A stretch of DNA of 64,000 nucleotides from an uncultured Gammaproteobacteria bacterium. Its GTDB lineage: Bacteria; Pseudomonadota; Gammaproteobacteria; JACCXJ01. The notes beneath the pieces were generated by a model. The model was not told where the DNA came from. It searched no databases and worked only from the letters and a program-made list of their open reading frames with translations. Below are positions 6,020 through 20,686 of the stretch, piece after piece (the first letter of the stretch is position 1; each line of letters begins with the position of its first letter). A program made the translations under genes and the position numbers. The stretch covers positions 64,001 through 128,000 of the forward strand of contig CAVXTM010000012.1 in assembly GCA_963764725.1 (NCBI GenBank). Reading direction: 5' to 3'.

Positions 6020-8185
6020 GTGCCGGAACTAATTCAAGTCGAAGACAACTGGTACGTGCGTGCGACCTCCGCGCGCGCCGACGACCGCCCCCGCGTTCTC
6101 AAGAAGGGGGAAACCTTCGGGATCTTCGACCGGTCCGGCGATATTAGCGCGAACGGCCTCGGCGAGGAGGGGCTTTACCATCAAGGGACGCGTTTTCTGT
6201 CAGCCATGGAGCTGAAGATCAACGGCGCCCGGACTCTGGTGCTCAATTCGGCGGTGCGGGAGGACAATAGCCTTCTAATGGTCGACCTCACTACACCGGA
6301 TCTCTACGAAGCCGCGAAGCTTAGTATTCGCAAGGACACGCTGCACATTTTCCGGGCCAAGCTCTTGTGGGAGGGAGCGCAGTACGAACACATACGTCTG
6401 GTGAATTATGGCGATCAACCGATGAGTCTTAGGATAAGCGTCTTGTGCGAGGCGGACTACGCGGATATCTTCGAGGTTCGAGGTATTCGCCGAGCAGTCC
6501 GAGGAAGCTGCCTTCCTGCACGCCGGCTAGGCCGTGAGTTGCTGCTTGCATACCGCGGTTTGGACCATGTGTCGCGTCATACTCGGATCATCGCCAGCGT
6601 CGATCCAGATCCGGGCACCGGCGCTCGGCTGTATTTTTCGCTAGTGCTCGGCCCACGCGATGAACACGAGCTGTCTTTGACCGCGGTCTGCGAAATCGGC
6701 GAGCGAATCCAAAGTGCCCCGAGCTACGAGCGAATGATGGAGCGATGGAACGTGGCAGTGACGGCGAATACCGAGGCTATCGCCAAAGTTCTTACGTCGA
6801 ACGAGCCGTTGAATCAGTGGTTACAGCGCTCCTCGGCGGATCTGCACATGCTCACAACCGAGACACGGCATGGCCTTTATCCGCACGCGGGCGTACCGTG
6901 GTTCTGCACCGAGTTCGGACGCGACGGGATCATAACGGCATTACAATTCCTTTGGATGCAGCCCGAGCTCGCTCGCGGGGTCTTGAATTTTCTCGCTGCC
7001 GAGCAAGCCGATACCGAGGCGCCCGCCCAAGATGCCGAGCCCGGGAAGATCTTGCATGAAGCCCGGCGTGGCGAGATGGCTGCGCTCGATGAAATCCCGT
7101 TTCGCCGCTACTACGGCAGCGTAGATGCGACGCCCTTGTTCATTCTGCTGGCAGGAGCCTATTTCGACTTGACCGGCGATCGAACCTTCATAGAGAGTAT
7201 TTGGGCCAATATCGAATACGCCCTCGATTGGATTGACCATTACGGTGATACGGATCGCGACGGCTTCGTGGAGTATGCGCGCGAGAGCGTGAATGGTCTC
7301 GAGCACCAGGGTTGGAAGGACTCGGCGGATGCGGTGTTCCATGCGAACGGTCAGCCGGCGCGGCCGCCGATCGCTTTGTGCGAGGTGCAAGGATACGTGT
7401 TCGCGGCAAAGCAGGCGGCCGCCAAGCTGGCAGCGCTTCTCGGCGATCATCGGCGTGCGGAGATCCTTAGCGAGCAGGCCGAGCAGTTGAAGACACGCTT
7501 CAACGAGGTGTTTTGGTGCGCGGACATCCAGGACTTTGCCTTGGCATTGGACGGGGAGAAGCGTCCTTGTTGCGTACCGGCATCGAATGCCGGGCATGCG
7601 CTGTTCACCGGCATCGCTAGTACCGAACACGCCCAGAGCGTAGCGGAAATCCTGCTCGGTGAAGACTCGTTCAGCGGCTGGGGTGTGCGCACCATCGCCC
7701 AAAGTGCAGCGCGCTTCAATCCGATGTCCTATCACAACGGCTCGGTGTGGCCGCATGACAACGGCATCATCGCCATGGGGCTCGCCCGTTACGGATTCAA
7801 GGACCAGGCGCTCGCGATCTTCACCGGGCTGTTCCAAGCAAGTACTACCATGGATCTTTACCGTCTGCCCGAGCTTTTCTGCGGTTTTCCTCGTCGCCCC
7901 GGACAAGGCCCAACGCAATACCCGGTGGCGTGCTCTCCCCAGGCCTGGGCGAGCGGGGCTCCCTTCCATCTGCTACAGGCATTGCTGGGATTGACTTTCC
8001 ATGGGGAGAAGCCGCAATTGCGTATCTATCGTCCCTTGCTGCCCGACTATTTGGACTGGCTGCAAATTAAGAATATGCGAGTGGGAGATGCCGTCCTCGA
8101 TCTCGGTTTTAGCCGTCACGACCAGGATGTAGCCGTCAACGTATTGCGCAAGGAAGGCGACGTGGACGTGGCGGTCCTCGTTTAA
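6020..8185 (+). CDS. Amylo-alpha-1,6-glucosidase / glycogen debranching enzyme
   Basis: AGVPWF..FGRD, EPGKILHE, YYGSVDATPLF, QGWKDS, YHNGSVWPHD. Confidence 0.92.
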   Translation: MPELIQVEDNWYVRATSARADDRPRVLKKGETFGIFDRSGDISANGLGEEGLYHQGTRFLSAMELKINGARTLVLNSAVREDNSLLMVDLTTPDLYEAAKLSIRKDTLHIFRAKLLWEGAQYEHIRLVNYGDQPMSLRISVLCEADYADIFEVRGIRRAVRGSCLPARRLGRELLLAYRGLDHVSRHTRIIASVDPDPGTGARLYFSLVLGPRDEHELSLTAVCEIGERIQSAPSYERMMERWNVAVTANTEAIAKVLTSNEPLNQWLQRSSADLHMLTTETRHGLYPHAGVPWFCTEFGRDGIITALQFLWMQPELARGVLNFLAAEQADTEAPAQDAEPGKILHEARRGEMAALDEIPFRRYYGSVDATPLFILLAGAYFDLTGDRTFIESIWANIEYALDWIDHYGDTDRDGFVEYARESVNGLEHQGWKDSADAVFHANGQPARPPIALCEVQGYVFAAKQAAAKLAALLGDHRRAEILSEQAEQLKTRFNEVFWCADIQDFALALDGEKRPCCVPASNAGHALFTGIASTEHAQSVAEILLGEDSFSGWGVRTIAQSAARFNPMSYHNGSVWPHDNGIIAMGLARYGFKDQALAIFTGLFQASTTMDLYRLPELFCGFPRRPGQGPTQYPVACSPQAWASGAPFHLLQALLGLTFHGEKPQLRIYRPLLPDYLDWLQIKNMRVGDAVLDLGFSRHDQDVAVNVLRKEGDVDVAVLV

Positions 8186-8278: not shown

Positions 8279-8391
8279 GTAAGAATTTCTGATCGACGGT
8301 AACAAATACCGATGGGCAGGGGTCGCCGAGGGGGCTCCACCCATTCCCTTTCAAGCAGCGGCGCCGGATCGCGCAATGGTACAAAGGTTGC
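8279..8391 (+). promoter_or_regulatory. sigma54 promoter TGGTACAAAGGTTGC with tandem upstream palindromes
   Basis: GG 8378-8379 and GC 8390-8391; GTAAGAATTTC (8279) and GTAACAAATAC (8299). Confidence 0.65.
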
Positions 8392-8437
8392 CCCGCCTCC
8401 AAACGACCAATTACATTCTTCTTCTATGGAGGCATCT

Positions 8438-8773
8438 ATGAATGAGACATTGCACCAATGTATCCAGGAATGCGTTAACTGCCACGGCATTTGTCTGAAT
8501 ACTATTACCTATTGTTTAGAGCAAGGCGGCCGGCACGCCGAGGGCGGCCATATCCGGCTGTTAACCGATTGCGCCGAGATCTGTCAGACCAGCGCGAACT
8601 TCATGCTTCGCGGCTCTTCCCTGCATGCCCGCACCTGCGCTGTGTGCGCCGAAATCTGCGCTCAGTGCGCCGCAGATTGCGGGCAGTTCAAGGACGATGC
8701 CCATATGCAGCGCTGTGCGGAAGCATGCCGACGCTGCGCCGAATCCTGCCGAGAAATGGCGGCGCATGGCTAA
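8438..8773 (+). CDS. Cys-rich four-helix-bundle copper-storage protein (DUF326/Csp3-like)
   Basis: Repeated CxxCxxxC motifs, DCAEIC, CAEACRRCAESC; SD GGAGG. Confidence 0.9.
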   Translation: MNETLHQCIQECVNCHGICLNTITYCLEQGGRHAEGGHIRLLTDCAEICQTSANFMLRGSSLHARTCAVCAEICAQCAADCGQFKDDAHMQRCAEACRRCAESCREMAAHG

Positions 8774-8885: not shown

Positions 8886-9434
8886 ATGAGCTGGGATACA
8901 GCAGTGAGTGTTTTCATGCAAGAACTGACTGTCGGACTACCGGACCCGGCCCAAACGATACGTGTAACGATGCGTCTCGGTGCTGCCATGCTCCTCGGTG
9001 CGATCGTCGGGATTCAACGCGAGCAGATAGGCAAAGCAGCAGGGCTGCGCACGCATATGCTGGTGGCCGTGGGCACAGCTCTATTCGTGATTGCCGCCCT
9101 GGAGGTCGGTATGTCCATGCGCGATTTATCACGGGTGATCCAAGGCATCGCCGCGGGCATCGGATTCATCGGGGCAGGAGCGATTCTTAAGCTTGCCGAA
9201 GAGCGCCAGATCCAAGGGCTGACGACGGCTGCCAGCATTTGGATGACGGCAGCGGTAGGGGTAGCGGCGGGCCTGGGCCGCGTGGGACTGGCGCTACTTA
9301 GTGCTGTTCTCGCCTGGACGATCCTCGCGGTTGTCGGAGCAATCGAACATCGAATCGAAAGGCGCGCAGCGAAAGCCGAAACCATGAACCGAACTGTATC
9401 GATAATAACTTGCTCCGGTGAGGCGAAACGGTGA
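8886..9434 (+). CDS. MgtC/SapB family membrane protein
   Basis: AGLRTHMLV, GIGFIGAGAI, GLTTAASIW. Confidence 0.92.
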   Translation: MSWDTAVSVFMQELTVGLPDPAQTIRVTMRLGAAMLLGAIVGIQREQIGKAAGLRTHMLVAVGTALFVIAALEVGMSMRDLSRVIQGIAAGIGFIGAGAILKLAEERQIQGLTTAASIWMTAAVGVAAGLGRVGLALLSAVLAWTILAVVGAIEHRIERRAAKAETMNRTVSIITCSGEAKR

Positions 9435-9600: not shown

Positions 9601-9830
9601 CGAAGCTCATAAACTCCACGCCCACCACCGCCACTATCCACCCGTAGCGACTATGGGCCGCTGAGCGAAAGTCAGCGCGACCGAGGGAAGGAATGTTGAG
9701 TAAATCACCGCCCCGAGCCGCCAACTATTATTACTAAGTCGCACAATCCATATGGCAGGCACGGCAGCGCGAGTGATGAGTATTAGTTGTCAATCAGTGC
9801 CTCTTAGCGCGGCGCACCGTGGTACGGTTT

Positions 9831-9971
9831 CCAACCCTTACAGCCTCGACCGGAAAGTGTTACCGATTCGGGTCCCTATTGCACACCCGTACCTTGTCCC
9901 TCGCACACCCCTAACTGCCTGACTGCGCGCGTTTATGGCCGGACACGCCAAAGCCGGGCATGAAGAATGCT
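9831..9971 (+). promoter_or_regulatory. sigma54 promoter module, copy A (tandem UAS, IHF-like box, -24/-12)
   Basis: CCAACCCTTAC-N11-GAAAGTGTTAC; CTAACTGCCTGACT; GGGCATGAAGAATGCT; conserved in copy B at 17186-17322. Confidence 0.7.
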
Positions 9972-9980
9972 CTCCAGTCA

Positions 9981-10107
9981 GTCATGGCTCACCAGAAGAA
10001 CTAAGATCGCGGCTACGGCGCATGCTGACTACCCCATTTGCCTCCCCCATTTGCCCGCCCTCGGGTGCCCTCTCCCCTAACCGGCATCACGGGCGGGATT
10101 CTTTTTT
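9981..10107 (+). ncRNA. Candidate C-rich small RNA, copy A
   Basis: Follows the sigma54 box, contains TTTGCCTCCCCCATTTG, ends in a CCCGCCC...GGGCGGG hairpin plus T-tract; paralog at 17332-17432; no conserved ORF. Confidence 0.55.
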
Positions 10108-10179
10108 ACCTGGGGTGGGGTTGTTGGCGAAGCGGTGTACTACTGACGACCAGGGAAGAAACCCGGCCGGGGGCAACCT

Positions 10180-10644
10180 ATGAGAAATTTGAGACCAGCT
10201 CGTTCGCGTATCCTCGCGCGAAGTAAGGCAGATACCTTGACGGTCAGGATAACCGGAAACTTAGGCCTCAGCCTCAGCTTCGATCTCTGGCATATCTGCC
10301 GTTTGGAGCAAAGCCGCTACCGTCGCTATATCTTCGATCTGGAGAAGATCGTCGTGCTCCATGACTCTGGTTTAGCGTGGCTCCTGATGTTCCAGCGGCA
10401 CGCACTGCGGGCCGGGGCACGGGTCCTGATCGTTAAATGCCGCAACGCAATCGCTCGCCGCTGCGCGGCGATCGGTCTTGAGGTGATAGCCGCCGAGCCA
10501 TGGATTCGACAGCCGATGCTTCGCCAAGGCATGCCTTACCGCGCACCAGTTTGGGGATCTGCAATCGGGCCGAGCGGTGGAAGTCGGGTGCCACACCTCA
10601 GCCTCTGTAAGAATAACGAGCACAATGCACGCGTAATTCACTGA
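10180..10644 (+). CDS. STAS-domain (anti-sigma antagonist-like) protein
   Basis: TLTVRITG, YIFDLEKI..HDSGLAWLL pattern; C-terminal tail looks degenerate. Confidence 0.6.
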   Translation: MRNLRPARSRILARSKADTLTVRITGNLGLSLSFDLWHICRLEQSRYRRYIFDLEKIVVLHDSGLAWLLMFQRHALRAGARVLIVKCRNAIARRCAAIGLEVIAAEPWIRQPMLRQGMPYRAPVWGSAIGPSGGSRVPHLSLCKNNEHNARVIH

Positions 10645-10902
10645 TTCTTTATTCGGTTGGGGCCGAGACGCTGCAGTGCTTACTTGGTTCTATCTCCTAT
10701 ACGTATTCACAGTAGTTTGGGGCGGTCATTCTCCTCCTGCGTCGCTAGAGTTGGCATTACCTCCAGAGCAGGAGAAGATATAATGGGGGAATATTGATCG
10801 AACCCGGAATGTCCGCATTCGAAGGCGCCTCACCGGCGCCCTCACCGAGCACGTTGATCTACATCGCGATGTAATTACGCGCGAGCGCGATCGCGCAAGT
10901 TC

Positions 10903-11061
10903 CTAGATTCTCCCCAAGAGCAACAAAATCAGTACCACCAGCAACACCGTGCCAAGGATACTGCTTGGACCGTAGCCCCATCCGCTGCTGTACGGCCAGG
11001 ACGGTATGGCACCGATCAAAAGCACGATCAGTACGATCAATAATATGGTTCCTAATGACAT
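10903..11061 (-). CDS. DUF3309 family small membrane protein (52 aa)
   Basis: MSLGTILLIVLIVLLIGAIPSWPYSSGWGYGPS...LLGRI; SD AGGAG. Confidence 0.9.
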   Translation of the reverse strand: MSLGTILLIVLIVLLIGAIPSWPYSSGWGYGPSSILGTVLLVVLILLLLGRI

Positions 11062-11349
11062 CGCTTTCTCCTATCTCATAAATCGTATGTCTACTCTCGG
11101 TTCAGGACTATTACCGCAATTATCAGCACTCAGGTGCACCCTCGCATGAGGAAAATGACCAGTAGAATGGGTATGGGCACGCCTAAAAGCCACAATAGGA
11201 TGTAACCCGCCTTACCTGCTTGCGACTTCAGGGTCGCAGGACGCTTAAAGATGCGCCGCAACTCATTTTTCATTCCCGTGCCACTCTCCTCACGTTCGTT
11301 GGGTTTGCTCCGCGGCCACCAGAGCCGCGGAGCGCAATATCCGGATTTA

Positions 11350-11547
11350 CTATAGGTTCCTCACCCACCCATCGGCTTCTTCCTGCGCTTTTTCCTTGGT
11401 ATAACCATACTTGGCCTGTAACCGACCGACCAGCTCTTCGCGCTTCCCTTCTATGACATCCAACTCGTCATCGGTAAGATCACCCCACATCTGCTGCGCC
11501 TTACCTCTGACCTGCTTCCAACTACCCTTGACTTGATCCCAGTTCAT
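11350..11547 (-). CDS. CsbD/YjbJ general stress protein
   Basis: MNWDQVKGSWKQ..WGDLTDDEL..GRLQAKYG. Confidence 0.95.
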   Translation of the reverse strand: MNWDQVKGSWKQVRGKAQQMWGDLTDDELDVIEGKREELVGRLQAKYGYTKEKAQEEADGWVRNL

Positions 11548-11622
11548 GTTTTCCTCCTCTATCTCTATGTATTGCGGTTTGTGCTTTAAACCCGCGACTC
11601 AGCCGCGGATGTTCAAATCGAC

Positions 11623-11758
11623 TTCAAGTACCGTGCCGCTAAACGGCATAACGCAATTTACCTTTCGGTTTAGTGGGATAGCACAGTCGCTTTGGCGAAC
11701 GGTGAAGTCGCACATTAAGATTGGCAGCAAGAATTTCCGGTTGATTTGTAAGGCTTAC
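11623..11758 (-). promoter_or_regulatory. sigma54-like promoter CGGCACGGTACTTGAA for csbD, with tandem palindromes
   Basis: GG-N10-GA at 11624-11637; GCAAGAATTTC (11727) and GTAAGGCTTAC (11748). Confidence 0.55.
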
Positions 11759-11899
11759 GCGGAGCGGCGTTCACCTCCCAAGGTTACGCGGGCAGTCATT
11801 ATAGAGCGCGCTGGCCGTACCTCGAGACAAACAACTGGATCTTCTCCCAGAGGCTATAGTCGACCGTATCGCCGCACAACAATGAGCCCGCTGGCGCAT

Positions 11900-12047
11900 G
11901 TAAGATTTGCAACGACGCAAGGTAATATTTACACGAATTAAACACAGCGTTTCTTTCTAGGGAACCATTTCTGGATCATTACGAGCGCAAACTGACCGCG
12001 ATTGTTCATCTCGGATGCACCAGCCAATAGCGGGCATAAAAGGTGCT
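11900..12047 (+). promoter_or_regulatory. sigma54 promoter GGGCATAAAAGGTGCT with tandem palindromes
   Basis: GTAAGATTTGC-N11-GTAATATTTAC; GG 12033-12034 and GC 12045-12046. Confidence 0.65.
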
Positions 12048-12115
12048 CAGTGGCATGTGATAGTAAACCTCTGGGCGAAGAGCCTCCGACTAATTCGCGA
12101 AAGCGGGAGAATCAA

Positions 12116-12271
12116 ATGAACAAGTTAACATCTATAATACTTGGTGGTCTTGTACTCGGTTCGCTGGCCGGTTGCGGGAACCAAGGCCCTGCGGAACGAG
12201 CTGGGGAGAATGTGGACGAGGCCGTCGAAGAAATGAAGGATGAAGTCGATGACGCGACCGACGCGCGTTGA
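12116..12271 (+). CDS. Small acidic lipoprotein
   Basis: Signal peptide with LAGC lipobox; GPAERAGENVDEAVE. Confidence 0.8.
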   Translation: MNKLTSIILGGLVLGSLAGCGNQGPAERAGENVDEAVEEMKDEVDDATDAR

Positions 12272-12314
12272 TATCCCACTAACTTGCCTGTGCTGAGGGT
12301 ACCTTTCGCATCCG

Positions 12315-12692
12315 TTGCAGTATTCAACATTTTCTGAACAAGGATCTAGCGAACCGAAACCCGTGAACAAAACACCGGCTCCAACTCCCGTCTCTCCTAC
12401 CCCGCTGATAAGCGGGATGGAGGCGTACGACGCGGACTTTCGGAATAACTTCCAAGCCACGTTCGGGATTCGCGGCTATAGCTACAACCAGTGTGCGCCA
12501 GCCTATGAATTCGGTTATACGATTGCTGTCGACCCACGTTACCACGGCCAGGAATGGATGACGATAGAAACCGAGGCCCGCCGCGAGTGGGAGCTTCGCC
12601 ATGAGGATGCATGGGAGGAATTCAAAGGCGCTGTGCATTACGCGTGGGATCGCGTTCATGGGCTCGATCATCGAACGCAGCTCACCGTTTAG
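12315..12692 (+). CDS. Conserved stress-associated hypothetical protein (resembles the C-terminal region of YsnF-type proteins); start uncertain
   Basis: YDADFR, PAYEFGY, ARREWE, WEEFKGAVHYAWD. Confidence 0.6.
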   Translation: MQYSTFSEQGSSEPKPVNKTPAPTPVSPTPLISGMEAYDADFRNNFQATFGIRGYSYNQCAPAYEFGYTIAVDPRYHGQEWMTIETEARREWELRHEDAWEEFKGAVHYAWDRVHGLDHRTQLTV

Positions 12693-12942
12693 ATACAATC
12701 TCGGAGGAGCGAGGGCTCCGATGCCGGTGCGCGCGGACGCTGTAGCAACGGATCGTATCGGTAGTCCTACAATCGATCGCTACGGTAGATTATGCTCAGT
12801 ACGCGACCTCGTTGCTAGTGCTTATCGTCGCGCCACGGCCTAAAACGCGCACAGCAAGCATTGGACGAGGCGATGAGATCAACGGGTCCAATCGGCGCGC
12901 CACCGGGCGATTTTTGTATAATGCTTCCAGAAGAATCAGGCA

Positions 12943-13509
12943 ATGCATAAGAATTTATCACTCATTCTGGGACTCTTCCTGATCACGGCACCATTCGTCC
13001 AGCCTTGGGCCGACGAATACGACGATACGATCGAGGTCTTCAAGGAGGCCGGTCAGAGCGGCAATTTTTTCAACAACGCTTACGGCTATGCGGTGTTCCC
13101 CACCATCGGCAAGGGGGGAATCGGTGTGGGCGCCGCCTACGGGAAAGGTCGCGTGTATGCTAAGGGTAAGCACGTGGGGGACACGTCCATGACCCAGCTC
13201 ACCCTGGGTTTCCAGCTGGGCGGAGAGGCCCATAGTCAGATCATCTTCTTTGAGGATCAGCACGCCTTCAAGCAGTTCACAAACGGTAACTTCGAATTCG
13301 GTGCCCAGGCCAGTGCCGTGGCGATCACCGCTGGCGTGTCCGCGGCTGCCACCACCACCGGCAGCTCGGCCGCTGCGAGCGGCGGGAAGCACGACGCCAA
13401 GACCGCCGGCGCATATCGCAAAGGAATGGGCGTGTTTACGGTGGCCAAGGGCGGTCTGATGTACGAAGCGAGTATCGGCGGCCAGAAGTACAGCTACACG
13501 CCGCTTTGA
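12943..13509 (+). CDS. SYLF/Ysc84-like lipid-binding secreted protein
   Basis: Signal peptide; AYGYAVFPTIGKGG, GFQLGG, GGLMYEASIGGQK. Confidence 0.88.
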   Translation: MHKNLSLILGLFLITAPFVQPWADEYDDTIEVFKEAGQSGNFFNNAYGYAVFPTIGKGGIGVGAAYGKGRVYAKGKHVGDTSMTQLTLGFQLGGEAHSQIIFFEDQHAFKQFTNGNFEFGAQASAVAITAGVSAAATTTGSSAAASGGKHDAKTAGAYRKGMGVFTVAKGGLMYEASIGGQKYSYTPL

Positions 13510-13569
13510 ACTGCTGACGAAGGCAGGGAGGGTACCCCACAGCGCTCTCTGCTTCGCTTTTGTTCAGAG

Positions 13570-13840
13570 CGACTCATCCCGCTTCCCAACCCCGAGCGCT
13601 TGCTCAACCCAGGCCTCACCTTCGAGCAACTCGATGCACTGGCCATGCAAATGAGCGACAATGAAAATGCTGCCCAGTTACACAAGGCACGACAACAACT
13701 CTTTAAACAGATCCATGAACAGTGGTCGCACAGCCCAGGCTCCCGACGCCCTCTCCCCGCAGGCCAGTACTCTTTCGCCCTAGGAGGCCGGGGCTTTTAC
13801 TACCTTCTTTCACACTCGTCTGAAATTAGAAAATACTTGG
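13570..13840 (+). mobile_element. 3' remnant of an integrase-type transposase
   Basis: LNPGLTFEQLDALAMQMSDNENAAQLHKARQQLF resembles transposase C-termini. Confidence 0.55.
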
Positions 13841-13859
13841 ACGGCACCGCAAAGTTCGT

Positions 13860-14625
13860 CAACCAGATCGTGTTAGTTGGCGCCAGCAATCTAACGCGAG
13901 CACTCGCAACCGCGGTGGAGGCCGCGGAGCACATCTGCGGCAGGCCGAACAGGCTCCTCATCGCCGCCGGTCATGGCCGGTCATACGGCGTCTATAGCCG
14001 GGTTCTGTTCCGCGGCCTACCGGCGATCACCCAGTGCGGCCTCTGGGATAAGCTGGCGACGGGACCGACGCTGCCTACCTTCGCCCTGCTCACCGATCTA
14101 GGCAATGACATCGCCTATGGCGTTTCCACTCGCGAACTCATCGGATGGGTGCGCTGGTGCGTCGAGCGTCTTACAGAACACCGGGCCCGGATCATCATCA
14201 CCACTCTACCGGTGCATCGCCTCGAACGTCTATCGCCAAGAAGATACAGGATCTTGCGAGCGGTGCTGTTCCCAGGACAGCGCCTCGGCTTGCCAGAAGC
14301 GCTTGAGCGGGCGCGAGCAATGAATCTGAAGCTGCGCGAGCTTGCACTTGAGCGACGGATTACGCTGGTCAGTCAGCGGCCGGAATGGTATGGCTTTGAC
14401 TCAATCCATATCCGCCGGCGCTGCTTCGCGACAGCCTATGGTGGGATCCTCAAGCACTGGCTTGCCTGCGCTCCGGATGAGCGGCCGCTCGGCAGCACCA
14501 GCATCCGCCGCTGGCTGCGATTACTGCTCCTGGCGCCGCAATACCAACGCGTCTTCGGATTCGACCGATACCGCGAGCAGCCCGCGGCTGTCCTCCCGCA
14601 CGGTTCTACCGTTTCGCTGTATTAA
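13860..14625 (+). CDS. SGNH/GDSL-like hydrolase; 5' end fused in frame to the IS remnant
   Basis: VLVGASN, GHGRSYG, TDLGNDI, YGFDSIH. Confidence 0.7.
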
Positions 14626-14845
14626 CGATGCGCATAAAAGCGAAATTGGCTGTGATACAGTATGTCTGGGAGTATGAGAGCGACTTCGACTTTAGCCAAG
14701 TAACGCATTTAAGCTGCAGGTGGTATGCGTGCGAAAGCTATAGTTAGTGTGCGTCCTTACTGATTGCCTGTCTGTGTGTCCGCACAGGGAGGCAGACCAT
14801 AAGCTCAACCGAAATCTACCATCCGGAAAGCCGAGGGACGACACC

Positions 14846-15151
14846 ATGTCAAACTGGCGAGTAGAACTGACTGCAAATAGTGATAACCAACAGGCCATTA
14901 TTGATGTAATGGACACAGTGGGACCGCTCAACAAGTGGCGGTGCGTTACTGATGATGCCTTTATTCCCGATGAGGGTGAATTCACCAATCAAGCTAGAAG
15001 AGTTGTACCGCTTATCCCCAACTTTTGGCAGCTCGACGATTTCGATATCGACGAGGTGCAAGTTGGATCGACTGGTCCCGGAGAAGTATTCGAAAGCGGA
15101 AGTTCCTTTCCGAATGGACCAGTTAGTTGGAGGGTTGTTAAAGCCTTATGA
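14846..15151 (+). CDS. Hypothetical protein (lower GC)
   Basis: ORF with GAGGG SD; no recognised motif. Confidence 0.5.
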   Translation: MSNWRVELTANSDNQQAIIDVMDTVGPLNKWRCVTDDAFIPDEGEFTNQARRVVPLIPNFWQLDDFDIDEVQVGSTGPGEVFESGSSFPNGPVSWRVVKAL

Positions 15152-15164
15152 GAGATTTCATGGG

Positions 15165-15327
15165 CCAATCCTGTCGTCTATTCGCTCAGCGCGTTCCGGT
15201 GGAGCATCTACCAGATCTCCGACGTGAGCGTCGGCACAAGCGCGGCGACAACACTGGGGTTCCCTTGCCTTGTGTCTGAGCGCGGTGTGGTGGATGTTTA
15301 AGACCGGATACCGGCTCAAGGCGTGAG
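15165..15327 (+). pseudogene. ABC-2 permease C-terminal fragment
   Basis: [13 protein letters not shown]...[12 protein letters not shown]. Confidence 0.6.
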
Positions 15328-15434
15328 GCCCTGGATCTCGCCAAGGCAACGGCGCCCACCACTATTTGACTCGGACTTGTTGACCGCCGATTAGCTCCTG
15401 CGAACCGGGCAGACTGGCATTGCGGGTGAGCGCC

Positions 15435-16073
15435 TCAGGCTCCCGGCCAGGATCGCAGCGCCAGCTGGATCGCACGTCGCAATTCAGCACGGCTTGCGCC
15501 GCCCGCTGCCTGGACTGCCAACCCATACATGACCGTTGCGACGTAGCGGGCGAGATCGGCGGCATTGACGTCGGCCGGGAGGTCACCCTTTGCTATCGCG
15601 CGCTTGAAACGCTGCCGTATCGCCGCCTCGCCCGTCTTGCGACGGGCGGCCACTTCCTTGCGGATGGTTTCGGATGCCTCCCTGCATGACAGTGCGCTTT
15701 GCACCATGAGGCAGCCCGGTGGATTCCGTGGATCGGTCTGCAGGTCCACAGCCCCCTGCAACAATCGCTCGACGACTGCGCGCGCGGTCGGCTCCTTGAG
15801 GGCTTCGTCTACGTAGGCTGCCGGCCCCTCGGCGTAGCGATCGAGTGCCTTGCGGAACAGCGCTTCTTTGTTGCCGAAGGCGGCATAGAGGCTCGGACGG
15901 TTGATGCCCATCGCTTCGGTCAGATCCGGAAGCGAAGCACCCTCGTAGCCTTTCTGCCAAAACACGTGCAACGCCCGGTCCAGGGCCTCATCGATGTCGA
16001 AGGCGCGGGGACGGCCCATTCGCGCGGGTGATTTTCTCACTTTCATACCGCGCGATACTAAACTCATTGACAA
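15435..16073 (-). CDS. TetR/AcrR family regulator
   Basis: GRPRAFD..FWQKGYEGAS..MGINRPSLYAAFGNKEALF. Confidence 0.95.
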   Translation of the reverse strand: MSMSLVSRGMKVRKSPARMGRPRAFDIDEALDRALHVFWQKGYEGASLPDLTEAMGINRPSLYAAFGNKEALFRKALDRYAEGPAAYVDEALKEPTARAVVERLLQGAVDLQTDPRNPPGCLMVQSALSCREASETIRKEVAARRKTGEAAIRQRFKRAIAKGDLPADVNAADLARYVATVMYGLAVQAAGGASRAELRRAIQLALRSWPGA

Positions 16074-16148
16074 TCTTTGTCCATGCGCGTATGTTATGTA
16101 CCAGTCGATATATAAGTATCACTCCACTTCCCCAACAGGAGCAAATCT

Positions 16149-16901
16149 ATGACAAAGACACTTACGGGCAAGGTCGCGTTGGTCACCGGCGCGTCCAAGG
16201 GCATCGGTGCTTCCATCGCCAAACATCTGGCGGCCGAAGGCGCGGCTGTGGTCGTCAACTACGCACTGAGTAAAGAAGGTGCCGACGAAGTCGTCGCCGA
16301 GATCGCAGGCAGGGGCGGAAGAGCCATTGCGGTGCAGGCCGATGTCTCAAAAAAGGCAGAGATCGAGCGTCTCTTTTCGGAGACGAGGATGGCATTTGGC
16401 AGGCTGGATATTCTGGTGAACAACGCAGGCATATACGAGTTCTCCCCGCTCGAAGACGTCACGGAAGATCACTTCCACCGGCAGTTTAACCTCAATGTAC
16501 TTGGTTTGCTCCTGGTGTCCCAGGAGGGGATCAAGTACTTCGGTGATGAGGGCGGCAACATTATCAATATCAGCTCAATCGCCAGCACCTACGCGCCGCC
16601 GAATACCTCGGTCTACAGTGCTACGAAAGGGGCAGTGGACAGCATCACGAGGTCGCTGTCCAAGGAACTCGGACCGCGCGGGATCCGCGTCAACGCCATC
16701 AATCCCGGTATGGTGGAAACCGAGGGCGTGCGCGCCGCGGGGATTACCGAGAGCGACATGCGCACGCAGATTGAAGCGCAAACCCCGCTGGGACGGATCG
16801 GACAACCGCCGGACATCGCAACGGCAGCCATCTTTCTTGCTTCCCCGGCCTCCTCCTGGATCACCGGGGAAACGCTCACCATAGCTGGCGGCCTGCACTG
16901 A
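16149..16901 (+). CDS. SDR family NAD(P)-dependent oxidoreductase
   Basis: TGASKGIG, NNAG, YSATK; divergent from TetR. Confidence 0.95.
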   Translation: MTKTLTGKVALVTGASKGIGASIAKHLAAEGAAVVVNYALSKEGADEVVAEIAGRGGRAIAVQADVSKKAEIERLFSETRMAFGRLDILVNNAGIYEFSPLEDVTEDHFHRQFNLNVLGLLLVSQEGIKYFGDEGGNIINISSIASTYAPPNTSVYSATKGAVDSITRSLSKELGPRGIRVNAINPGMVETEGVRAAGITESDMRTQIEAQTPLGRIGQPPDIATAAIFLASPASSWITGETLTIAGGLH

Positions 16902-17185
16902 AGTGCCCAGAGGCGTGAAGCCTGACGTGCTACTGAGTGCGACCAACCACAGGTAGTCAATCATCATCACTACGGCGCACTCCGGGATTGCCCTGTCCGT
17001 GCTCGGATTCTTTTTCTTTCGCACCTCATCGGAACGAACCCGCATTGGCATGTTTGTACTCCTGTTTGTCGGCGTGGTGTCTTTTCTCGATTTCCAGGCG
17101 CTCATATCGGTTCTATGCCCGCGTTCTTACGACGCGGGTGTTCGCGGTAGCCCTGCGCCCGCTGGCTTTCGACAGGCTCGCTATT

Positions 17186-17322
17186 GCAACCCTTACAGCC
17201 TCGACTGGAAAGCATTACCGATTCGCCTCTCTGGCACGCCCATTCCCTCTCGCTCGCATATCCTAACTCTCTGACTGGGCGGGGTTATGTCGGGACACGC
17301 CAAGCCGGGCATAAAGAATGCT
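17186..17322 (+). promoter_or_regulatory. sigma54 promoter module, copy B
   Basis: GCAACCCTTAC-N11-GAAAGCATTAC; CTAACTCTCTGACT; GGGCATAAAGAATGCT. Confidence 0.7.
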
Positions 17323-17331
17323 GTCTAGCCA

Positions 17332-17432
17332 GGCATGGCTCAGGTGCATGCTGACTGTCCCCGTTTGCCTCCCCATTTGCCCGCCCCTGGGGTCCCCCTC
17401 CCCTATCGCGCATCACGGGCGGGATTCTTTTT
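17332..17432 (+). ncRNA. Candidate C-rich small RNA, copy B
   Basis: GCATG..CATGC 5' hairpin, TTTGCCTCCCCATTTG, CCCGCCC..CTCCCCTA..GGGCGGGATTCTTTTT. Confidence 0.55.
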
Positions 17433-17538
17433 GACCTCGCGATGGGTTGGCAAAGTGATGGGTGGCCGAGTGCGGATCGGGTGGCTTGATTGAAGCACCC
17501 TGAGTTATTTACCTTTTGACCTCCATCCATTAAGAGGA

Positions 17539-17751
17539 GTGACCATGACTATGCTAAAGGTTGTCGAAATATTGGCGCAGTCCGAGAAGAGCTGGGAGGA
17601 CGCCGCGCAGCTCGCGGTTCAGGAGGCTGCCAAGACGGTGCGCAACATCAAATCGATCTATGTCAAGGAGATGGAAGCAACTGTGGAAAACGATCGGATC
17701 ACCTACTACCGGCTCAACGTCAAGATTTCCTTCGCGATAGAGGGACGATAG
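17539..17751 (+). CDS. Dodecin family protein
   Basis: KVVEILAQSEKSWEDAAQ..YRLNVKISF. Confidence 0.92.
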   Translation: MTMTMLKVVEILAQSEKSWEDAAQLAVQEAAKTVRNIKSIYVKEMEATVENDRITYYRLNVKISFAIEGR

Positions 17752-17860: not shown

Positions 17861-18496
17861 ATGAGTAACCAACTGCCCTATACCCCCAAACAGTTCGCCC
17901 TCAATGGGCTCAACGGCATCTCCGATCGCACGCTCGAGATGCACTTCAAGCTCTACGAGGGCTACGTCAAAGAGACCAACAACTTGAGCGAGCAGATTGC
18001 ACGGTTCCTGGCCGACGGCAAGGTCGATCAAGAGGAGATGCCGGCCTACTCGGAGCTTACACGCCGGGTGGGCTTTGAGTATAACGGCATGGTGTTGCAT
18101 GAATATTATTTCGGTAACCTCAAGCGCGGTGGCTCTGGTAACCCTGACCGCGACTCGGCCTTCTATCAAGCAGCGGAGGCGAGTTTTGGCCGCTACGAGA
18201 TCTGGCGCGCGGACTTCACCAGCGTTGGCAAGATGCGAGGGGTGGGCTGGGCGATCTGTTACCAGGACCCGGTCAGAAAGCGCTTGTCCAATCACTGGGT
18301 TACCCTGCACGAGGTCGGCAATGTCGCTGGCTTTACCCCAATTCTGGTGATGGACGTCTGGGAACACGCTTTCTTGCTCGACTATAAGCCGTCGGAGCGG
18401 CCCAAGTACATCGAGGCCTTTTTCTCCAACATCGACTGGGACGCGGTCGAGATGCGCTTGCAGGAGGGCGCAGCGGCCCGTCCTGTCGGCGCCTGA
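17861..18496 (+). CDS. Fe/Mn superoxide dismutase family protein
   Basis: EMHFKLYEGYV, LHEYYF, MDVWEHAF. Confidence 0.92.
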   Translation: MSNQLPYTPKQFALNGLNGISDRTLEMHFKLYEGYVKETNNLSEQIARFLADGKVDQEEMPAYSELTRRVGFEYNGMVLHEYYFGNLKRGGSGNPDRDSAFYQAAEASFGRYEIWRADFTSVGKMRGVGWAICYQDPVRKRLSNHWVTLHEVGNVAGFTPILVMDVWEHAFLLDYKPSERPKYIEAFFSNIDWDAVEMRLQEGAAARPVGA

Positions 18497-19307: not shown

Positions 19308-20686
19308 GAGCTTCCGTCAAGAGGTGTGTAAATAAGTTCAGGCGGCCTTTCTGATGGTGTCATTATTTGTTCGTATTCCATCGGCGAATGCGACGCCGTT
19401 ATAGATGTCTTTCAGTAGCTCGGTGGCGTTGAGCCGGCGGAAAGTCGTTTCAGCGACCATCATGATTTTCCAGATCAGGGCGGTGGCGTTATCGACTTTC
19501 TTGAACCGCTTGGCCGCATTGGTACGTAGCCGCACAGCGGCGAAGGGCGATTCGATCGGATTGGTGGTTCGCAAGTGGATCCAGTGTTCTTTGGGATAGC
19601 GGTAGAACGCCACCATGCGCTCCCAGTCGTGATCGAGAAGCTCAGCGGCGGCTTGGAAGCCTTGTTGACGGCACCAGCGTTGGAAGGTCGCTTTGGCCTT
19701 CTCCGCTTCTTGGCGGGTAGGGGCATAGGGGATCGGACAGAGCAGCGCTTTCGCTTCGGCCTGGCGTTTCTTCGGAAGCTTATCCAAGAGGTTTAAAATG
19801 CGATGATTCCAACAGCGCTGTTCCTCGGCCTCGGGATACACCTCGGCCAGTCCACCCCAAATCCCCAGATGTCCATCACCGACCACCAGGCGCGGTGCAC
19901 GTAGGCCACGTTTCTTCAAATCCCGTAACACCGCCGACCAACTCTCGGTGGATTCCCGAAACCCGGGGGTGATGGCTAAAAAGGCCTTGCGCCCATCGCT
20001 CAGGCCCGCCACGACCACTAAGAGCGCGGCCTTCTCCTTCTCCAATCCCGCCTTGACATACACCCCGTCTACCCACAAATAAACGACCCCCAACTCCGCG
20101 AGAGGCCGTTGATTCCAAAGCGCATATTCCCCCGCCCACTTCGCTTTCAGCCGCGCCACCGAACCCCCCGAAAGCGGCGCCCCATCCCCGAGCAGCCCCC
20201 GCAGCGCAAGCTCAAAGTCGCCCAGGGATAACCCATGGAGATACAACGTGGGAAGTAACTCCGCCACCGTCTCCGTGCGGCGGACAAATAAAGGCAACAA
20301 CCTGCTCTCAAAGCGCTCCTCCACCCCTCGCACCCGCGGCCTCGCAAGCTCCACCGTCCCACAGCTGAGGCCCAACTTCCGTACCTTCCCATACCCATTG
20401 CGGTACCCGCCCGGGCCGTCTATCTCCGCCCGACGCTCCGATTTCTCTCGCCCTAAGAACACGGTGACTTCCTCTTCGAGCAGATCTTGCAAATACCCTT
20501 GAATCCGCCCACGGACCCATTCCTCGAGATTCTCCCATACCACACTTGACCTACCCACTCCTTCGGTGCTTTGCTTCTTCATGGCGGTGTGCTCCTTTCT
20601 CTCGGGCCTGCCAGCCCGTTCTTTGTTAATTACTACAGAAAGGGTACATCGCCTTCACCTTTTTACACACCCTTTGATGGTACCTC
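19308..20686 (-). mobile_element. IS256-family element, copy 1 (1379 bp)
   Basis: Imperfect TIRs GAGCTTCCGTCAAGAGGTGTGTAAA / GAGGTACCATCAAAGGGTGTGTAAA; 8-bp TSD TCGAGATC at 19300-19307 and 20687-20694. Confidence 0.95.
19338..20582 (-). CDS. IS256 family DDE transposase
   Basis: YRNGY, WVDG, GDG, QRCWNH, RTTNPIES. Confidence 0.97.
   Translation of the reverse strand: MKKQSTEGVGRSSVVWENLEEWVRGRIQGYLQDLLEEEVTVFLGREKSERRAEIDGPGGYRNGYGKVRKLGLSCGTVELARPRVRGVEERFESRLLPLFVRRTETVAELLPTLYLHGLSLGDFELALRGLLGDGAPLSGGSVARLKAKWAGEYALWNQRPLAELGVVYLWVDGVYVKAGLEKEKAALLVVVAGLSDGRKAFLAITPGFRESTESWSAVLRDLKKRGLRAPRLVVGDGHLGIWGGLAEVYPEAEEQRCWNHRILNLLDKLPKKRQAEAKALLCPIPYAPTRQEAEKAKATFQRWCRQQGFQAAAELLDHDWERMVAFYRYPKEHWIHLRTTNPIESPFAAVRLRTNAAKRFKKVDNATALIWKIMMVAETTFRRLNATELLKDIYNGVAFADGIRTNNDTIRKAA

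Follow-up and report, generated by a model that had tools for sequence, protein, structure and literature searches.

Several families of bacterial small RNAs share features with the element described here. CrcZ and CrcY of the Pseudomonadaceae are RpoN-dependent, CbrB-activated paralogous small RNAs with repeated short motifs, which serve as protein sponges through A-rich motifs for Hfq/Crc. The CcsR/'cuckoo' RNAs of Alphaproteobacteria carry C-rich motifs, occur in several copies and respond to stress, and the 6C RNA of Actinobacteria reportedly binds its mRNA targets through C-rich loops. Nearest in architecture is the GlmY/GlmZ system of Enterobacteriaceae, a homologous pair of small-RNA genes with sigma-54 promoters, three activator sites and sites for integration host factor (IHF), and, in some species, overlapping sigma-70 promoters (PMC3045617). 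Nearest in presumed action is sX13 of Xanthomonas, whose C-rich hairpin loops act against G-rich motifs at the ribosome-binding sites of repressed mRNAs, and which accumulates under stress (PMC3771888). Here, we describe a non-coding cassette present in two copies, A (~9821–10140) and B (~17176–17465), in a 64,000-nucleotide stretch of DNA from an uncultured Gammaproteobacteria bacterium (GenBank assembly GCA_963764725.1, contig CAVXTM010000012.1, positions 64,001 to 128,000; hereafter the window). Our tentative first choice, which we hold at slightly under an even chance, is that the cassette would be a dual-output unit, in which a sigma-54-type stress promoter drives a terminated C-rich small RNA and, by read-through, a downstream gene.

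Compared with these systems, the cassette seems to be a regulatory RNA of a conventional type that has not been described before, and does not look like a new regulatory principle. Like GlmY and GlmZ, the two copies are paralogs, and their layout as predicted from sequence is the same, with an IHF-like box and a GG-N10-GC box among the conserved blocks upstream. The cassette shows no homology with GlmY/GlmZ (no Rfam match, E up to 10), lacks the GlrR site TGTC-N10-GACA and usually precedes a co-oriented gene, whereas GlmY and GlmZ act on glmS and RapZ and not via C-rich anti-Shine–Dalgarno motifs. The likeness to sX13 lies in a CCCCCUCCCCUA loop and CCCC-containing units that face G-rich leaders; sX13 has three stems, each with a C-rich loop, whereas the cassette combines one hairpin with linear repeated units, and the two also differ in the absence of an Rfam match, in predicted promoter type and in taxon. 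The CcsR/cuckoo and 6C RNAs are likewise C-rich-motif small-RNA families, but they belong to other phyla, lack homology to the cassette, carry the motif in several small hairpin loops and are not known to be driven by sigma-54. CrcZ and CrcY resemble the cassette in being RpoN-dependent (predicted for the cassette), paralogous and built with repeated short motifs; their CbrB site TGTTAC-N14-GTAACA is not present as such, a single TGTTAC lying inside the CGGAAAGTGTTACCG palindrome of copy A.

A BLAST search of the organism's own assembly (4.21 Mb, 19 contigs) with copy A aligned the two copies at 75% identity over 282 nt (E 1.9e-49), a similarity far beyond chance, and on this alignment copies A and B are true paralogs. 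An earlier interpretation of the same DNA (the sequence-only reading) had presented them as diverged copies with unrelated flanking genes; both lie on the + strand, and when the two regions were read and aligned, every motif it had listed was in place and in identical order in A and B. Conservation goes ~30 nt beyond the T-tract at which that reading had ended the copies, to ~10140 and ~17465, and copy A does hold the ~25–27 extra nt that it had noted in the 5' part of the RNA. Its term 'multicopy' was an overstatement, since genomes carry one or two copies. Its proposed BLASTN search yielded one further copy in the genome and cassettes in relatives; no third copy was found by BLAST with copy A across the whole assembly, and separate nhmmer profiles of the two halves found no additional copy of either in the genome, the sole other match being weak (E 0.16). 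The proposal of a novel small RNA also withstood Rfam searches by gathering score and by E-value: across the whole window at gathering scores the only match was a tRNA, with none on the cassette, and at E up to 10 the cassette was unmatched in 6.5 kb around both copies. No description of the element was found in a full-text literature search whose coverage lacks most subscription journals.

Among 60 relatives searched, the cassette is present in 10 of the 14 other genomes of its own family, which is the only family of its GTDB order, and was not found in 46 other families sampled with one genome each. A covariance model of the RNA half matched 11 of the 15 genomes of the order, own genome included, and 0 of 149 other families in a class-wide sample, a negative that holds for the families searched. 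When 185,579 species genomes were scanned by pattern, 11 stretches were returned, namely seven already known loci, one new locus (L021) and three genome contigs (L017, L022, L026) that were dropped because only the searched pattern was in common. Scanning metagenomes gave 49 stretches, 12 of which match the whole element and 11 of which are distinct (L041 duplicates L050); 36 were dropped for sharing only the searched pattern, and L067 for sharing only that pattern and one further 20-nt stretch. Family genomes, metagenomes and L021 together provide 25 distinct full copies and two partial ones. L021 (contig JBOGJG010000046.1) carries a full cassette in a metagenome-assembled genome labelled Acidobacteriota; because its flanks are 80–92% identical to gammaproteobacterial loci, the contig is probably mis-binned. 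Cassette positions are syntenic across two genera, and a link to soil, cave and sediment habitats is tentative (DNA metagenome runs; shares up to 0.27). The loci L004 (G008), L005 and L013 (G001), L006 (G014), L008 (G005), L010 (G009), and L009 and L015 (G012) come from genomes flagged as unpublished, with L004, L006, L008 and L009 also present as public contigs.

The layout of the cassette was drawn from alignments of 25–26 sequences, with identity given as mean pairwise column identity. Its upstream half comprises ~150 nt that are densely conserved among the 25 distinct copies, with the family block TTGCAACCCTTACAG. In copy A, this candidate regulatory region (9821–9955, +) contains an imperfect palindrome CGGAAAGTGTTACCG (9851–9865), the direct repeats GCACACCCGTACCT and GCACACCCCTAACT, 22 nt apart (9881–9894 and 9903–9916), and an IHF-like box CTAACTGCCTGACT (9911–9924). 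The corresponding candidate region of copy B (17176–17306, +), placed by alignment, contains the palindrome block TGGAAAGCATTACCG (17206–17220) and the IHF-like box CTAACTCTCTGACT (17263–17276). Over the 26 sequences, identity reaches 0.88 in the palindrome block CGGAAAnnnTTACCG, 0.86 in the CCTAACT..CTGAC block of the IHF-like box CCTAACTnnCTGAC and 0.91 around GGGCATGAAGAATGC, the best conserved block of the upstream half; the direct repeats follow GCACACCC(G/C)TA with a spacing of 22 nt. Palindrome, repeats and IHF-like box lie at distances from the downstream -24/-12 box that would suit predicted activator sites.

Further near-palindromes of type CGGnAAnnnTTnCCG are scattered in the surrounding island, such as CGGCAACTATTACCG and CGGTAACAAATACCG at 1899–1913 and 8297–8311, the latter directly preceding an open reading frame (ORF) at 8312–8773. 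With up to two mismatches allowed, the window holds 15 such sites against 4.6 expected, and they may be candidate sites for one common DNA-binding protein.

The upstream half ends in a candidate sigma-54 -24/-12 element, GGGCATGAAGAATGCT at 9956–9971 in copy A and GGGCATAAAGAATGCT at 17307–17322 in copy B, both on the + strand. The GG-N10-GC box itself is GGCATGAAGAATGC at 9957–9970 and GGCATAAAGAATGC at 17308–17321, set within GGGCAT-GAAGA-ATGC (9956–9970) and GGGCAT-AAAGA-ATGC (17307–17321); its doublets are 10 nt apart, which is exactly the sigma-54 promoter spacing, and the GGCAT and TGC of GGCAT-N6-TGC are invariant in 26/26 aligned sequences. In layout the upstream region is compatible with sigma-54, as had been proposed earlier. 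The genome encodes hfq and rpoN, the latter found in 14/15 family genomes overall (the sole genome without a match is 76% complete, yet holds the cassette). Its 15 Sigma54_activat matches, by which we mean those of the own genome, include 12 strong ones (E of 7.4e-41 or better). From the position of the GC doublet, transcription would start ~12 nt past it, near 9981–9983 in A and 17332–17334 in B. Weighing this evidence, we lean towards a sigma-54-dependent promoter, at somewhat better than an even chance. Against such a promoter, and with it against the dual-output unit, stand an imperfect match, GGGCAT/ATGC being three positions off the sigma-54 consensus TGGCAC-N5-TTGC, and a search for Sigma54_activat domains that found no enhancer-binding-protein gene in the window, the nearest lying ~24 kb from copy A. 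In addition, GGCAY-N6-TGC by itself shows no enrichment within the window (8 found, 6.3 expected), so the sigma-54 argument rests on invariance and position rather than on counts. In the whole genome there are 25 GGGCAY-N6-TGCW matches, and three of the five in least coding context fall within this 8-kb island.

A sigma-70 or sigma-S promoter, with a -10 of AAGAAT, a -35 of GGACA in some copies and a coincidental GG-N10-GC spacing, is the less likely option; it concerns the sigma factor only and would fit either reading of the RNA discussed below. A further point against sigma-54 is that a sigma-70-like CGGACA-17-AAGAAT overlaps the box of copy A, although it scores 8/12 by reading, below the scanner threshold of 9, and the scanner called no + strand sigma-70 promoter in either copy. 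The -35-like GGACA is moreover lost in the otsA-linked copies, where AGAGTT, GGAGCT or AAAACT replace it, and L010 has AAGAGT at the presumed -10, while GGCAT and TGC stay invariant in all 26 sequences. Neighbouring genes speak for sigma-S, in that otsBA, CsbD-like, DUF2383, dodecin and superoxide dismutase (SOD) genes are of the kinds that sigma-S controls in model gammaproteobacteria. A start ~5 nt further upstream would also place the inverted repeat AGTCAG..CTGACT inside the RNA, and overlapping sigma-70 and sigma-54 promoters occur at glmY and glmZ (PMC3045617). Favouring sigma-54 again, an unrelated promoter-like site, GGGCATAAAAGGTGCT at 12031–12046, also reads GGGCAT-N5-GTGCT and is conserved in six genomes of the genus. 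This third GG-N10-GC site lies ~70 nt upstream of a small lipoprotein-like ORF (12116–12271; 52 aa, starting MNKLTSIILGGLVLGSLAGC...) and may belong to the same regulon as both cassettes.

Directly downstream of the promoter block, conservation drops sharply: the 5' part of the predicted RNA has a mean column identity of 0.37 among the 25 copies and falls into three length types, with indels of ~17–19 and 25–27 nt. In copy A this variable part (9982–10025, +) ends in the conserved GGCGCATGCTGAC, and across the family GGCGCATGnTGAyT is conserved after the variable segment, ahead of the C-rich units. The sequence-only reading had placed a 5' hairpin, CATG..CATGCTGACT, in this region. An inverted repeat does exist there in the DNA, but as a conserved RNA hairpin we reject it: there are three length types, the repeat is missing from the third, and its outer arm AGTCAG, 5–10 nt past the -12 GC, precedes the inferred sigma-54-type start. 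No conserved 5' fold was found in the 25-copy alignment.

Next come one or two 13-nt C-rich units per copy, CCCCAUUUGCC, with the family form (T)CCCCATTTGCC. Copy A has the tandem units TGACTACCCCATT and TGCCTCCCCCATT (10026–10051, +), a candidate seed, and copy B has tandem units at 17358–17381 (+); only three of the 25 copies (L021, L032, L050) have a single unit. They are followed by a terminator-like hairpin, which in copy A (10054–10107, +) consists of an outer stem CCCGCCC/GGGCGGG (10054–10060/10091–10097), an inner stem (10064–10069/10083–10088), a C-rich loop (10070–10082) and the tail ATTCTTTTTT (10098–10107). The predicted RNA of copy B (17333–17432, +; covariance model 92.6 bits) is ~100 nt long with a short 5' part, and ends in the same outer stem (17380–17386/17417–17423) and the tail ATTCTTTTT (17424–17432). 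In the family, the outer stem pairs CCCGCC(C/T) with (G/A)GGCGGG and the inner stem GGTGCC with GGCATC, around a loop of 13–15 nt, CCCCCTCCCCTA, with the core CCCCCUCCCCUA; the tail is ATTCTTTTT. Such a structure, with a 7-bp GC outer stem and a 6-bp inner stem followed by AUUCUUUUU(U), conforms to a Rho-independent terminator, and across the 25 copies 97.7% of outer-stem and 90.3% of inner-stem cells are paired. A simple terminator scanner missed the hairpin because it takes loops of 3–8 nt only. Both the conserved C-rich motifs and the terminator-like hairpin, first proposed from copies A and B, recur in the 25-copy set.

The U-tract exists on the + strand only. On the minus strand, a sigma-70-like TTGCCA-18-AAGAAT at 17424–17453 overlaps the position of the copy B U-tract and would give rise to a G-rich antisense RNA. 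We rejected such a minus-strand transcript: by reading, this promoter-like sequence is not conserved among the otsA-linked copies, and its strand has no U-tract.

By part, identity is 0.80–0.95 in the hairpin stems, 0.69 in the C-rich units, 0.64 in the loop and 0.37 in the 5' segment. The predicted folds leave loop CCCCCUCCCCUA and unit 2 unpaired, and both are kept across the 25 copies while the 5' part varies. RNAalifold, the covariation check suggested earlier, retained the terminator with 12 pairs and found changes on both sides in one pair only (CG 15, UG 5, UA 4, one broken, among 25 copies). Beyond the terminator, ~12 nt are conserved (GACCTGGCGRTG, identity 0.74) and give way to lineage-specific G-rich sequence, as in the conserved G-rich stretch ACCTGGGGTGGGGTTGTTGGCGAAGCGGTG of copy A (10108–10140, +) and the conserved stretch GACCTCGCGATGGGTTGGCAAAGTGATGGGTGG of copy B (17433–17465, +).

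The same alignments bear on two further possibilities, a mobile or selfish repeat, such as a miniature inverted-repeat transposable element (MITE) or the end of an insertion sequence (IS), and a small protein-coding gene, both of which we regard as very improbable. The unrelated flanks of the two copies could point to the former, as could a Mutator-family transposase gene located 2 kb beyond copy B; a 52-aa open frame (17335–17493) running through copy B could point to the latter. Mobility is contradicted by the one or two copies per genome, by syntenic positions across two genera and by the absence of terminal inverted repeats flanking the unit, so that the MITE or IS end against which the sequence-only reading had cautioned did not turn up. 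Indels of 13, 17–19 and ~27 nt and differing frames among the 25 copies exclude a shared ORF, in line with the earlier remark that the two copies have none in common.

The position of the cassette relative to genes is nearly constant. In 22 of the 25 loci a co-oriented gene starts ~60–120 nt past the U-tract, leaving little room for a separate downstream promoter, and where a gene follows the terminator it is always on the same strand. These genes are otsA in ten loci, otsB then otsA in one, dodecin in six and STAS in five, one of the last apparently frameshifted (L005, 1997–2179). In three loci (L004, L008, L013) an intact cassette has no co-oriented gene behind it. In L004 and L008 a DUF2383 fragment, DUF3309 and a CsbD-like gene come next, in convergent orientation, while in L013 (430–470) a deletion fuses the terminator to the last codons and 3' end of dodecin. 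Gene loss behind an intact cassette thus seems recurrent (L005, L013), with assembly error possible. Two half-cassettes, the only ones in the searched family genomes, separate the module naturally. L015 has the promoter half only, up to about the inferred start, followed by an unrelated 290-nt leader and otsA, and L012 has the RNA half only, with a C-rich unit and the hairpin ~15 nt past the stop codon of a DUF2383 gene. Genomes flagged as unpublished are the source of the promoter-only variant and of all three loci that lack a downstream gene.

These loci bear most directly on a purely cis-acting alternative, in which the promoter would feed a leader whose C-rich region and hairpin act as a conditional terminator or translational gate, the short RNA having no function in trans. 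The sequence-only reading had offered an attenuating leader as its alternative, and that idea gains weight from the 22 loci with a nearby gene, from L007, where the gap between U-tract and otsA start is only ~60 nt, and from the promoter half serving otsA in L015; the three intact loci without a co-oriented gene take weight from it. Also difficult for a pure leader are the RNA half that alone forms the 3' end of another gene in L012, and the sharing of one leader among three unrelated families of downstream genes. Pairing within the RNA offers a possible mechanism, as the conserved GGCGCAUG can pair with unit 1 (90.7% of cells) or unit 2 (92.4%). The 7-bp pairing with unit 2 would be at best a weak antiterminator because it overlaps only the first two bases of the terminator stem, and neither pairing shows compensatory change, so no convincing antiterminator is seen. 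Post-terminator leaders are G-rich and complementary to the C-rich parts, which suits a leader, and folding copy A alone predicts a long helix that would join the C-rich linker to the G-rich stretch past the terminator. As a family feature this helix was rejected, since only 47–69% of its cells are paired and the linker/downstream complementarity does not exceed that of dinucleotide shuffles (mean z -0.41, 25 loci). Overall, we consider the purely cis leader doubtful, and favour the dual-output unit over it.

The leaders themselves are unusual in composition. At least three runs of four or more G occur within 100 nt past the terminator in 11/25 loci, compared with 0.34% of 20,000 random genome windows, and the excess of G over C there reaches +30 to +42, the genomic 99th percentile being +18. 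Leaders linked to otsA (L071, L074, L011, L032, L054, L055) contain two to four tandem units of 15–21 nt, AGCGTGAAGGGGGA(A/G)GGGG, which by reading are in frame with otsA and each resemble a Shine–Dalgarno sequence plus a GTG/ATG start. The longest ORF in L071 and L074 begins 19 nt past the U-tract, with the Pfam domain starting at residue 45. Such units could serve as alternative starts, encode an N-terminal Gly/Glu/Lys repeat or form G-quadruplexes. Several otsA leaders also contain GGGGAGGGGG, the exact complement of CCCCCUCCCC in the hairpin loop, a match that is suggestive but compositional. An extended form of the dual-output unit, which we consider rather unlikely, is a stress switch whose C-rich units would also gate translation in cis, on G-rich leaders with tandem Shine–Dalgarno and start-codon repeats such as the 15–21-nt in-frame AGCGTGAAGGGGG before otsA, while the small RNA acts in trans.

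The sequence data show directly that the cassettes are paralogous, conserved, modular and non-coding, that they contain a terminator-like hairpin and that their taxonomic range is restricted. In the dual-output unit, the cassette would be a self-contained transcription unit ahead of stress genes, with a ~150-nt regulatory region that offers several protein-binding blocks and ends in the putative sigma-54-type -24/-12 promoter. Transcription from ~12 nt past the GC would yield a 100–130-nt RNA whose 5' end is free to vary and is followed by one or two CCCCAUUUGCC units, a GC-rich hairpin with a large CCCCCUCCCCUA loop and a U-tract. Most transcripts would end at the hairpin and be released as a small RNA, whose exposed C-rich stretches may pair with G-rich ribosome-binding regions of target mRNAs in an anti-Shine–Dalgarno manner. 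The remaining fraction would read through into the co-oriented gene, that is otsA or otsB, dodecin and SOD, or the STAS gene, so that a single stress signal might produce both a regulator RNA and protective proteins.

Three arguments support this arrangement. First, a promoter with a short terminated RNA behind it would account for the split variants, for the drop in conservation at the inferred start and for the U-tract on one strand only. Second, the loop and units are kept while the 5' segment decays, three copies have no gene behind them and L012 reuses the RNA half as a 3' end, which argues for a separate function of this half. Third, a stress gene lies close by in the same orientation at nearly every locus, and the promoter half serves otsA in L015; both points argue that the promoter also feeds that gene by read-through. 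Alongside the promoter points given above, several results count against the dual-output unit. The gene 60–120 nt past the U-tract in 22/25 loci fits a pure leader equally well, and, the sequences being closely related, the loop and units may look conserved in part because little time has passed since they diverged. RNAalifold supports the terminator only, with its single pair of both-sided changes, and in single-sequence folds the predicted RNAs are no more stable than shuffles (z +0.40 and +0.86). A genome-wide target search by exact 10–12-mer complements gave numerous uninformative matches, only noise.

In the window, both copies lie inside an island of stress-type genes. Upstream of copy A are a glycogen-debranching-like gene (6020–8185) and MgtC (8886–9434). 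Copy A is followed by a gene for a STAS-domain protein (10180–10644, +), whose STAS_2 match is weak and below the Pfam cut-off (E 2.2e-4) and whose orthologs in L045 and L003 also match STAS, and further on by DUF3309 (10903–11061, -). A TetR-family gene (15435–16073, -) and an SDR gene (16149–16901) precede copy B. Behind it are a dodecin gene (17546–17751, +; Dodecin, E 2.5e-25), an Fe/Mn superoxide dismutase gene (17861–18496; Sod_Fe_C, E 1.1e-21) and, ~0.85 kb downstream of the latter, the Mutator-family transposase gene (19338–20582, -).

If expressed as predicted, the cassette would constitute a new small-RNA or leader family, and no regulatory RNA would have been proposed before it in this uncultured order of gammaproteobacteria. 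The family is clean and well delimited but limited to an uncultured lineage; the 25-sequence alignment and covariance model could seed an Rfam entry, and the natural promoter-only and RNA-only variants provide a ready dissection of the module. Under the dual-output reading this module is portable, having been recombined onto at least four different genes. If the promoter assignment is true, it would tie sigma-54 to desiccation and oxidative-stress genes (trehalose synthesis, dodecin, SOD, CsbD-like) whose usual regulator in model gammaproteobacteria is sigma-S. Should the extended stress switch also prove true, one RNA module would govern protection against both desiccation and oxidative stress, through trehalose and dodecin/SOD, in cis and in trans.

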